A stretch of 64,000 bases of DNA, taken from assembly GCA_977017645.1 (NCBI GenBank), contig OZ360241.1, forward strand, positions 38,254,001 through 38,318,000, written 5' to 3'. The DNA is from Torpedo marmorata (lineage: Eukaryota). Position numbers and translations under genes: made by a program. Below the pieces are notes generated by a model. That model was not told the origin of the DNA, made no database searches, and was given only the letters and a program-made list of their open reading frames with translations. Of the stretch, positions 1 to 15,374 are shown piece after piece (within the stretch, counting starts at the first letter, position 1; every line of letters begins with the position of its first letter).

Positions 1-914
1 TGGGAACCAGGTGTCAGAGCCGGGATTCGAGAGGATGCTGAGGGAAAGAAGGGCTCCCGAATGGCCTTGGGCACTGAAGGCTTCCTGATTGTGTCGGAGG
101 TTTAGATCTGGAGCTCGGGCTGCCAATGAATCGAACAGGAGTCTATGCAGCTGCAGAGGCTGCAGGAGCGCCTCCATGGACACTCAGTGACTCTGAAGGG
201 ACTCTCTTTTGCTTCTCTTTCTCTCTTACTGCAAGGGGTGCCGGGTGATACTAATGGTGATTCTTTGTCTGTCCTACGGCAGGCAGAAGGCAATTTCGTC
301 TAATATTACATTCTGCACTATTACATAACAAATAAAGGAATCTTGAATTAAACTTCATTTGCCAGTCATCCAATCTATATCTTGTTGCCAACTCATCATA
401 TCCTTATCACAATATGCCCTTTGTATCAGCAGCAAACTTGGAATCCTTAGGTTGTTCCCTCCTTCAAGACACAATTGCAAACACTAAATAATTGAAGGGC
501 AAGAACCGATCACTGCAGTACTCCACGAGTTACATCCCTATAGCCTGAAATAAATACTTTTATTCCAACTCTGTTTTCAATGTGACAGCCAGTACAACAA
601 AATTGCCAATAAATACATAAAATGCTGTATATTCTCAGCAGTTCAAGCAGCATCAGGCCGTTAACTTGACTCACTGTCTGTTTCTCTCTTCACAATTATT
701 TTGGATATCCAAAATATGCATTGTTTTGGTCTTCAAGAACAAAACTGCCTCCACTGGTGCTTTAAGCAAACTGATCGGGTGGGAGGGGGTGGTTTCTTAC
801 TGATTGTAACTGTGCCTATTCATGCACTCAGCTTACCAGAACATTAGATAGTGCTCATTTGAGAATGACATTGTGGCAGCAGGTCAGAGTAAAGAGAATT
901 TTAATACAGTAGGG

Positions 915-1072
915 CAGTGGTTCTCAACCTTTTTTTCCCCCCACTCACATACCACCTTAAGTAATCTCTTACTAACCAGAACACCTATGGCATAGGATGC
1001 CATAGGTGCTCTATGGTTAGTAAGGGATTTCTTAAGGTGGTGTTTGAGTGGAAAAAAGGTTGAGAACCCCTG
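915..1072. mobile_element. hAT-superfamily (Charlie/MER5-like) palindromic MITE
   Basis: TIRs CAGTGGTTCTCAACCTTTTTT / AAAAAAGGTTGAGAACCCCTG; perfect 8-bp TSD CAGTAGGG at 907-914 and 1073-1080; the interior is a near-perfect palindrome. Confidence 0.92.
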
Positions 1073-1111
1073 CAGTAGGGAATAAAACTTGGGACTGAAA
1101 GTTCCGGTTAG

Positions 1112-1326
1112 GGGCACGGTTAGCGCAACGCTGTTACAGCGCCAGCGATCAGGATGTGGGTTCGAATCCAACGCTGTCTGTAAGGAGTTTGTACGTTCTC
1201 TCCGTGTCTGTGTGGCTTTCCTCCGGGTGCTCCAGTTTCCTCCCACCGTTCAAAAACGTACCAGGGGTGTAGGTGAATTGGGTGTCATGGGCTAAAAGGG
1301 CCTGTTATCGTGCTTGCATGTCTAAA
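1112..1326 (+). mobile_element. tRNA-derived V-SINE (HE1-like)
   Basis: B box GGTTCGAATCC, V-domain CCTCCGGGTGCTCCAGTTTCCTCCCAC and a CR1-like tail; one of at least 8 copies in the window. Confidence 0.88.
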
Positions 1327-1565
1327 TTTTTTTTATTTTTTTTTTTTTATATAAAGATGAAAACCTCTGGATTGAAATACTGTCTACTTTCAAATCATTT
1401 TTATCAAAAATATTAATACGTTATAGATCTTGACTTTCTACATCAAAATATATGAATTTTACAAAAATAGAAAGCGAACTATATTTTATAGGTGCTAGTC
1501 AAACTATTAATTACATTCTTATGTACTGAAACATCAAAACAAGAATAGGTCAATCCAGAGAAACA

Positions 1566-1800
1566 CACGGTTAGCGTAGCGGTTAGCGCAACGCAGTTAC
1601 AGCACCAGCAACCGGGGTTCGAAGCCCGTGCTGTCTGTAAGGAGTTTGTACGTTCTCCCTGTGTCTGCGTGGGTTTTCCCCAGGGACTCCGGTTTCCTCC
1701 CACCGTTCAAAAAGTACGGGGTTGTAGGTTAATCGGGTGTAATTGGGCGGCACGGGCTCGTGGGCCGGAAGGGCCTGTTACTGTGCTGTATGTCTAAATT
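1566..1800 (+). mobile_element. tRNA-derived V-SINE (HE1-like)
   Basis: Same head, V-domain and GGGCCTGTTACTGTGCTGTATGTCTAAA tail as the other copies. Confidence 0.88.
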
Positions 1801-1959
1801 AAATTTTTTTTTAAAAATTAAGAACTGCAAATGCTGGAATCTTGAGCAAACAAATTCAAATAACTCTCAGTAAATAATTTTGGGTTGAGTCCTTCTGGCT
1901 AGCCATTTCTCTCCATGGAGTTTGCCTGGTCTGCTGGGTCCCACCAGCTTCTCTTTGTT

Positions 1960-2828
1960 TGAATTAGTCAATCCATCACAAGCAGCTGGAACAAGGACTA
2001 CGTGTGCAGTAAAGGGCATTGATCCAATGAGAGACGATAGAAATTTTGGCCCACAGTCCTGCCACAACATGCCAGAAATAGAACCTCAACAAGTCTGCCA
2101 CAGATCACGGTACACAGAGAGCGGTGGGGTAGGTGACTAATGAATGACCTGGCAGCTGGAAAGCTTTTACCTCATAATATTCCTGATAGGACAGATTTTG
2201 ACTAATTTTCAGCATAGGTAGCCATAGAGTGATTGACGGACAAATAGTACAGTAAATAGTACAGTAATAGTAAAACCCCTGGTATGGGGATTGATAGATG
2301 CTGGATAAACGAATTTTCCGGTTGCTTGAGATTGTGTGTTGCGTGACTGGCAAACTAATGGTGAGGCGCGCCAATTTTAAACTTCCGTATATTATATCTA
2401 TTTATGTTCCACAATTTTTTTGCCAGTTGCTTGAGGCTGCCAGTTGCTTGAATTCCGGATAACAGAGGTTTTACTGTTGTTGGAATATTTTTGTCACTAG
2501 ATATTTTTCCTGTTAGGTCAGTGATCCCTGGCAAGGAATTTTGACTAGGTTTTATTTCCTTCACTCACGTGATTGGTCATATTTATATTCTAAAGCAATG
2601 TAGTCTTTAAACGTTTGAGGAAAGGTGAGAGTCAATTTTAGAGATACAGGTACTTTTGTTTCTGGACAATTGGTACAGTGCATGGAAACTCAGACCCATC
2701 TCTGAAGCTTTGAACAAAATAAGCACCCACGTTCTACTTCTGACCATTGAAATGCAGATCATCCAGAACTCTAATTGAACGTGTCAAGTGAGTGCATGAC
2801 AGCCACTTCTCTCTAGTTAGCCCGAGTC
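1960..2828 (-). pseudogene. DOT1L: Decayed distal part of ancestral DOT1L exon 27 (now probably 3' UTR)
   Basis: Downstream of the stop, translated remnants QSFRDGS, SPFLKR and LSSLIGSMPFTAHVVLVPAACDGLTNS resemble human HSFSDGAS, NPFLSKR and LQSLFSSVPAAAGLVHVSSAATRLTNS in the same order; several stops and a MITE interrupt them. Confidence 0.7.
2268..2476. mobile_element. Tc1/mariner (Tigger/pogo-like) MITE
   Basis: Termini AGTAAAACCCCTGGTAT / ATAACAGAGGTTTTACTG; clearly related to the copies at 15200 and 31136. Confidence 0.8.
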
Positions 2829-3058
2829 TTAATAAGCTTCCCCTGAAACCATTTTAGAATGACTAACTGAAAGGTCACCTGTAATAGGCCTGGTGCCAAA
2901 AGGAGAAGCTTGGCAGAAAGCAGATGCTGACTGGGATCCGTTGTCAGAGTTCTTGGTCAAATTGGTATCGGATATTGGAGAAAAAGTGGACTTCCATTTA
3001 CTGCTGTTGTCTGTACTACTGGAACCGAGTCCTTGCTTCCGTATTGTTAAACTTCCAA
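2829..3058 (-). CDS. DOT1L: DOT1L exon 27, coding part to first stop (GSLTIRKQ...NSSKWKSTFSPISD...GEAY*)
   Basis: Acceptor tctatag, phase 1; conserved NSSKWKSTFSPISD; TAA at 2829-2831 (end point less certain than the acceptor). Confidence 0.8.
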
Positions 3059-3524
3059 CTATAGAAATTTAAAAACACGGTCAGTACAAAAGGTAAAACA
3101 GTTCACATTAAAAAGTTGTTTTCAAGAATAAATTTATTTGAAGGTTTCTAAAGATGAGTTTAGAGTGCTTTGGTGCCAATGGATAAATGAATTGCATCAA
3201 AATTAAAATTAGAAATCACACTAATGACTTTGACAAACAAGAAGTCTGCAGATGCAACACACAGTGCTGTCTAATACTTTCCATGGATGCTGCATGACCC
3301 ACCGAGTTCCTCCAGCACTGTGTGTTGCTACACTTATAACTTTAAACATTTGAAGCTTTTAAAGTTCAATCACCACAAATGAAATAAATCATGGAGGCTC
3401 ACAAGACGAATACAACTTTAGTGAGGTCAGATGACCCTTTCCTGTGAAACTCCACCAAAGTCCAGCTGAACACATCACCTAACCTTCTCTGGTTTACGAT
3501 TGTTCGCTGAATACGTTAATTCTA

Positions 3525-6669: not shown

Positions 6670-6749
6670 CTGGGTCACCTTCCCCACAAATAGGTGTAAT
6701 TTCTTTACTCTCGATCGACACAGTGCATTGAGTCATTTTTCTTTCAATC
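6670..6749 (-). CDS. DOT1L: DOT1L exon 26 (IERKMTQCTVSIESKEITPICGEGDP)
   Basis: Acceptor tcaag, donor gtaaat; resembles human IERKIATISLESK; phases 2/1 fit the neighbouring exons. Confidence 0.85.
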
Positions 6750-15199: not shown

Positions 15200-15374
15200 C
15201 AGTAAAACCCCTGGTATCTGGCACCTATGGGGATTGGTAGATGCAGGATAAGTAAACGGTGAAGCTCGCCAATTTTAAACCCGTATTTTTTTTATATATT
15301 TATTTTCTGCAATTTTTTTGCCAGTTGCTTGAGGCTGCCGGTTGCTTGTATTCCGGATAACAGGGGTTTTACTA
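15200..15374. mobile_element. Tigger/pogo-like MITE
   Basis: TA then CAGTAAAACCCCTGGTATCTGG ... CCGGATAACAGGGGTTTTACTA inverted termini. Confidence 0.82.

Follow-up and report, generated by a model that had tools for sequence, protein, structure and literature searches.

The window analysed here, a 64-kb stretch of DNA at G000:C54:38254001-38318000 in a 6.2-Gb genome, holds most of the DOT1L gene on its minus strand, with exons in order from 56444 to 2877 by tblastn. Ten of these exons were checked and all were without stop codons; the largest is 94% identical to that of Narcine bancroftii, 84% to that of Mobula and 72 to 81% to those of sharks, while the catalytic exons at 54799-54569 and 54383-54288 are open and 100% identical to Narcine, in whose protein the DOT1 family (PF08123) covers residues 115-317. 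Judging from the largest exon, the DNA likely comes from an electric ray. A genome search with the stretch 2480-3100 returned a single match in G000, where the DOT1L tail is single-copy and has no processed copy. Given open exons for the DOT1 catalytic domain and a single locus with intact last exons, the locus is predicted to be a functional orthologue of DOT1L, the vertebrate H3K79 methyltransferase. The features in present use at the 3' end of the gene are the following, with exon numbers taken from an earlier sequence-only reading of this DNA:

6670 to 6749, minus strand: DOT1L exon 26, intact, ending CCAG/gtaaat, 93% identical to Narcine residues 1206-1232 by tblastn
2879 to 3058, minus strand: the 180 nt of exon 27 that are in use, open without a stop, with the KWKSTFSPISD motif, 93% identical to Narcine
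2873 to 2881, minus strand: internal 5' splice site D1, CAG/gtgacc, phase 1, on a Gly codon
1 to 2878 and continuing beyond the window start, minus strand: last intron in present use, leading to the long and short last exons
L001:2473-1890 (= G000:C54:38246473), minus strand: long last exon, 193 aa, ending SGVKPR, open, with a canonical acceptor
L001:1256 (= G000:C54:38245256), minus strand: short last exon, adding Asn and a stop

Exon 27 begins at 3058 after a TAG acceptor, and its frame, if read past 2879, ends 15 codons further on at TAA 2829-2831, as the sequence-only reading had noticed. Both last exons are intact and lie outside the window, 10.4 and 11.6 kb beyond the donor at 2879; the long one shares 187 of 193 residues with Narcine, and the short one was the sole candidate in a scan of window positions 1-2900 plus 40 kb of flank. 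The donor at 2879 and both acceptors are in phase 1, so the frame is kept in either case. Sequencing runs were compared as assembled contigs of guessed kind from six of 21 runs, and three of them bear on the splicing. The X4 contig, from a run of uncertain species, covers 2877-3060 (184 letters) with no difference to the genome, and its two loose ends correspond to exon 26 and to the initial 30 bases of the long last exon. X18 and X20, both relatives, have contigs in which the donor at 2879 is joined to the short last exon, itself found independently, and the 3' end of exon 26 is the loose end beside 3060 in all three runs. Across the runs, the loose ends found at 2877 agree with the initial bases of the long and of the short last exon. 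These joints were seen with a repeat-free query stretch, the repeat-rich comparison having been swamped and having shown none. Since the junctions fall at canonical sites and no processed copy occurs in G000, spliced RNA is the plain reading of these contigs. The predicted DOT1L products would be about 1486 aa with the long last exon and about 1294 aa with the short one, which are the lengths of the Narcine models. Human DOT1L has one short-ending and one long-ending isoform.

On the intron side of the donor, the minus strand from 2878 to 1960 can be aligned to the 277 residues that form the second part of exon 27 in sawshark DOT1L (P0136, isoform X1). The proposal that an ancestral coding sequence was lost here and is still visible as a fossil is thus borne out, with 277 codons affected by sawshark numbering rather than the roughly 230 first estimated. 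The fossil of this extension, whose parts are called segments B, C and D, is composed as follows:

2613 to 2878, minus strand: fossil of segment B, now intron, with about five frameshifts and three aligned stops; the first stop on reading through is TAA 2829-2831
2607 to 2613, minus strand: site of a 37-codon deletion; alignments stop at 2613 and restart at 2607, and 37 shark residues are absent
2481 to 2607, minus strand: middle fossil, of segment C, containing AATAAA at 2556-2551
2268 to 2476, no strand assigned: MITE within the fossil, with terminal inverted repeats and very high depth in other runs
1960 to 2212, minus strand: fossil in which the end of segment C is followed by D, the conserved last block, aligned to sawshark

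Segment B shares 49 of 84 residues with sawshark P0136 at a score of 131 (60 shuffles: mean 36.5, largest 60), positions 2607-2484 share 19 of 40 at a score of 46 (reached by none of 200 shuffles), and positions 2212-1960 share 41 of 83 at a score of 86 (largest of 60 shuffles, 59). The last block, for which homology had been claimed at 2040-1960, was upheld with 18 of 31 identical residues and a score of 72 (largest of 200 shuffles, 52). Overall, the fossil was significant in five of six piecewise tests against sawshark or chimaera, the weak one being chimaera against 2090-2267, where 11 of 200 shuffles reached the score; rodent P0076 showed 38% identity over 42 residues (E 0.63). Frameshift counts and positions are approximate, as strict frameshift alignment gave two short blocks and lower penalties gave longer ones. 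Two short peptides that had been taken as remnants, QSFRDGS and SPFLKR, are indeed present (starting at 2712 and 2628) near the homologous positions, but they lie one base off the homologous frame and their letters match by chance; the homologous frame there reads KASEMGL..ALYQLSRNK..SHLSSN, with 23 of 31 residues matching shark.

Besides the frameshifts and stops, the 37-codon deletion took out the second donor, D2, that sharks use, and no GT is found at the expected position of the ancestral exon-end donor D3, the only two GT in 1860-1965 lying elsewhere. The MITE at 2268-2476, already named by the sequence-only reading, is corroborated by its terminal inverted repeats, which recur in another element at 15200-15374. 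The stretches flanking the MITE, 2607-2484 and 2212-2106, both align to a single motif within shark segment C, with scores of 46 and 43, reached by 0 and 1 of 200 shuffles, respectively. This double match may reflect an old duplication; at the DNA level a duplication around the MITE did not rise above shuffles (50 against a largest value of 57 in 500). Further into the intron, a repeat of about 250 nt has two copies at 1100-1345 and 1560-1815, with cores 82 to 86% alike, which we take to resemble a tRNA-derived SINE. No Pfam family was found in the extension or in the long last exon, and the extension is low in complexity.

Nothing was found to favour an error in the assembly or a second, dead gene copy; the single copy in G000, the open upstream exons and the repetition of the lesions in independent runs make this explanation hardly conceivable. 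That the stop itself is an assembly error is excluded, because the contigs of X1, X2 and X3 that span it have no listed difference at this position; in 2700-3202 X2 has four other letters, all listed, and no gap. The stop being real and common to these three runs, the sequence-only reading had concluded that exon 27 is the last exon, that DOT1L is truncated to about 1308 aa at TAA 2829 and that the fossil became 3' UTR, a reading to which AATAAA at 2556-2551 and a read-through contig in X20 also lend something. Nevertheless, both last exons are intact, and all three RNA-like runs have contigs with the junction at 2879; one of the two exons reached from CAG/gtgacc gives the protein back a tail of 193 residues. 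Moreover, the read-through contig of X20 has a depth of 15.9 against 365 for the junction, contig depth being a weak measure, and it extends beyond AATAAA; the stop is not kept in X20, and no listed batoid model ends in this way. We therefore regard the truncation as very unlikely. The figure of 1308 aa stands as the length of a read-through product if the upstream part equals that of Narcine isoform X1, and fails as the actual end of the protein, since the transcript is spliced at 2879. Reading through to TAA 2829 likely gives a minor product, and a transcript that ends in the intron is possible in view of the X20 read-through contig and the AATAAA in the fossil. The lost sequence thus became intron, and its downstream exons are intact and joined to 2879.

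Comparison among close relatives revealed how the former coding sequence behaves at present. Relative to the window, X20 differs in 30 of 372 letters of the fossil and in 6 of 184 letters of the used exon (Fisher p 0.029), with six indels in the fossil and none in the used exon (p 0.19). Its read-through ends after 18 codons at a different stop, as reconstructed from the 23 of 30 differences that were listed, and since X20 is colinear with the window over the 37-codon deletion, it has this deletion too. In the contig of X3, position 2623 is followed directly by about 2156 (loose end with 26 of 30 letters alike, by eye), which amounts to an additional deletion. Differences in lesions between close relatives are expected of an intron without constraint. 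Frameshifts, stops, the deletion, the MITE and a divergence faster than that of the used exon together show that coding constraint on the extension has been lost and that the change is fixed, going beyond mere alternative splicing. The lesions were compared in the close relatives X1, X2, X3 and X20; their first stop is not the same in the window and X20, and they do not demonstrate lesions common to all rays. The X18 contig over 2715-2768 (54 letters, depth 3) is too thin for dating lesions. One candidate frameshift in the used exon, the four letters GATC added at 2934 in X3, was rejected as it resembles a proximity-ligation scar, an origin suggested by the letters themselves.

The distribution of the extension across vertebrates was drawn from protein models. 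It is a coding exon in sawshark, chimaera, coelacanth, tetrapods and teleosts. Sawshark P0136 (1759 aa), chimaera P0189 (1773 aa), coelacanth P0013 and the tetrapod proteins share with ray DOT1L the exon order, the DOT1 domain PF08123, KWKSTFSPISD and the SGVKPR end, and they differ in keeping 277 to 290 residues past the donor position, with a terminal LQS(L/F)F block. For bony vertebrates, a sample composed mostly of birds, 167 of 178 proteins contain exon 27; the last block was found by pattern in 158 of these 167 and by eye in one more, one protein ends otherwise, and a D1-like donor was seen in none of the 167. Seven bird isoforms (e.g. P0028) use a later internal donor, about 209 residues past the KWK motif, and omit the last block; two snake proteins flagged for a short exon proved false on re-check. 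Among the 11 chimaera proteins, four have the entire extension and eight have D, with D1 used in none. Squalomorphs (sawshark and sevengill shark) likewise contributed 11 proteins, two with the whole extension and six with the last block D, and the others use D1, D2 and an internal acceptor in differing combinations. In galeomorph sharks, the first 113 residues of the extension occur in 29 of the 45 proteins listed and the rest in none, two of the galeomorph clusters being listed in part (15 of 28 and 15 of 24). The D1 donor is in use in models of sawshark, catshark, basking, white, bamboo and zebra shark and smooth-hound. A Scyliorhinus canicula protein of 298 aa named 'abl interactor homolog' (P0276) corresponds to a DOT1L tail with segment B joined to the long last exon; it is likely a misnamed processed copy and lies on another contig than catshark DOT1L.

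The batoid set comprises 33 of the 45 members of three clusters, all of them RefSeq models, from nine species (Narcine, two Mobula, Hypanus, Hemitrygon, Leucoraja, Amblyraja, Rhinoraja and Pristis). Segments B, C or D occur in none of these 33 proteins, and exon 27, included in 28 of them, ends at the D1 donor in all 28. Searches with the extension as the query, run against cluster representatives, returned no batoid protein among 105 hits (4123 candidates) or among five hits (3608 candidates). Judging from these models, the loss of the extension is likely common to all rays and skates; it would thus not be special to one species, and would reach wider than the sequence-only reading supposed. 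A recent decay, confined to electric rays, with an open extension in other batoids that annotation missed, would agree with the fossil having been compared in close relatives only and with the dependence of RefSeq models on transcript support, which can leave rare isoforms out. We consider this unlikely, although less so than the other alternatives, because the same pipeline that found no extension in 33 listed models of nine species finds it in sharks, and because the extension searches recovered no batoid protein among the representatives.

The origin of the donor can be approached from amino acids, as read here in place of shark or chimaera DNA. The residue at the donor, aligned by eye, is Gly in nine of nine elasmobranch rows and Asp or Glu in seven of seven others, being Asp in chimaera and Glu in coelacanth, caecilian, alligator, bird and rodent. 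At the D1 position, a GT donor in phase 1 requires a Gly codon, and hence the contrast between Gly and Asp or Glu fits a new donor. It might instead be supposed that damage came first, with a frameshift in the ray ancestor and the later recruitment of a cryptic donor at 2879 as a rescue; the D1 sequence gtgacc matches the donor consensus modestly and no lesion carries a date, both of which this order of events would accommodate. Sharks, however, use D1 while the sawshark extension is fully open, so the donor predates the damage, and we rate damage first as marginally less probable even than the truncation. In our judgement, the best explanation, and a highly probable one, is that the window holds a dead 3' part of DOT1L exon 27, cut off by the internal donor at 2879, from which the transcript is spliced to one of two intact last exons; the 277 skipped codons have undergone decay within the intron, probably from the time of the ancestor that rays and skates share.

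The fossil, its lesions, both last exons and the junctions from 2879 were observed directly, whereas the origin of the donor, the reach across all rays and the order of events are reconstructed; we infer the following order for this history. In early elasmobranchs, an Asp or Glu codon would likely have changed to Gly (GGT), thereby creating a GT donor in the phase of the old exon-end donor, so that skipping the extension would have kept the frame into both last exons. The extension would then have become optional, as the full, partial and skipped forms that stand side by side in the sawshark and sevengill models suggest. In rays, productive transcripts likely came to be of the skipped form alone, and selection on the extension would have lapsed, after which the frameshifts, the deletion of D2, the MITE and the loss of the old donor could have accumulated.

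On a broader scale, the cartilaginous fishes may present a series of stages from exon to intron, with two independent losses of the last block, in rays and in galeomorphs, after the donor became optional; we would put this at an even chance. If true, the series would run from chimaera without the new donor, through squalomorphs with all forms open and galeomorphs without the last two segments, to rays without all three. Rays are the sister group of all sharks, and a correct reading of the series would therefore imply two separate losses of the last block, which teleosts through mammals retain. The galeomorph models that lack the last two segments of exon 27 are a possible second loss.

The conversion of coding sequence into intron is reported as rare in vertebrates, and the survey of Hoh and colleagues gives three human cases and names, while leaving unexplored, the kind of event by which exon sequence is added to an intron already present (PMC12124190). 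The ray case is an intronization through a shifted 5' splice site: a sequence that is a coding exon in outgroups is now spliced out in frame and has lost constraint. As in the intronization described there, an exon that codes elsewhere in vertebrates has turned intron with a frame-keeping length; in contrast to it, ray DOT1L gains no new intron, and a new donor shifts the 3' part of an exon into the intron that follows (PMC12124190). At 831 nt the segment is also large, and the optional stage seems still to be represented among living sharks. The process is thus known and the case is new as an orderly example of it, the ray isoforms themselves being already encoded in RefSeq models. Narcine bancroftii XP_069784826.1 (1486 aa) and XP_069784829.1 (1294 aa), together with other batoid models, have the same donor, last exons and lengths; these models carry no remark on a lost segment or fossil, and the loss becomes visible only by comparison. 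Literature listings for DOT1L isoforms, for its exon 27 and C-terminal region, and for sharks and rays, with subscription journals mostly outside their scope, showed no paper on this loss, and the accessible part of PMC9043692 holds nothing on DOT1L isoforms.

For the protein, the AF10 and AF9 regions of human DOT1L have been placed at residues 419-670, 628-653 and 863-900, and the function of the long C-terminal region beyond these sites is described as unknown in the same review (PMC8944089). The mapped AF10/AF9 binding regions lie far upstream of the lost part, and in the predicted proteins they and the catalytic domain are untouched. The finding does not change what DOT1L does, and its meaning for the protein is a predicted internal deletion; accordingly, the idea of a natural deletion test survives as an internal deletion and not as a truncation. 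The locus offers a well-resolved vertebrate case of coding sequence becoming intron. In rays, about 277 residues of the DOT1L tail, including its best-kept block, can go, while KWKSTFSPISD and both last exons stay, which points to the parts of the tail that merit testing.
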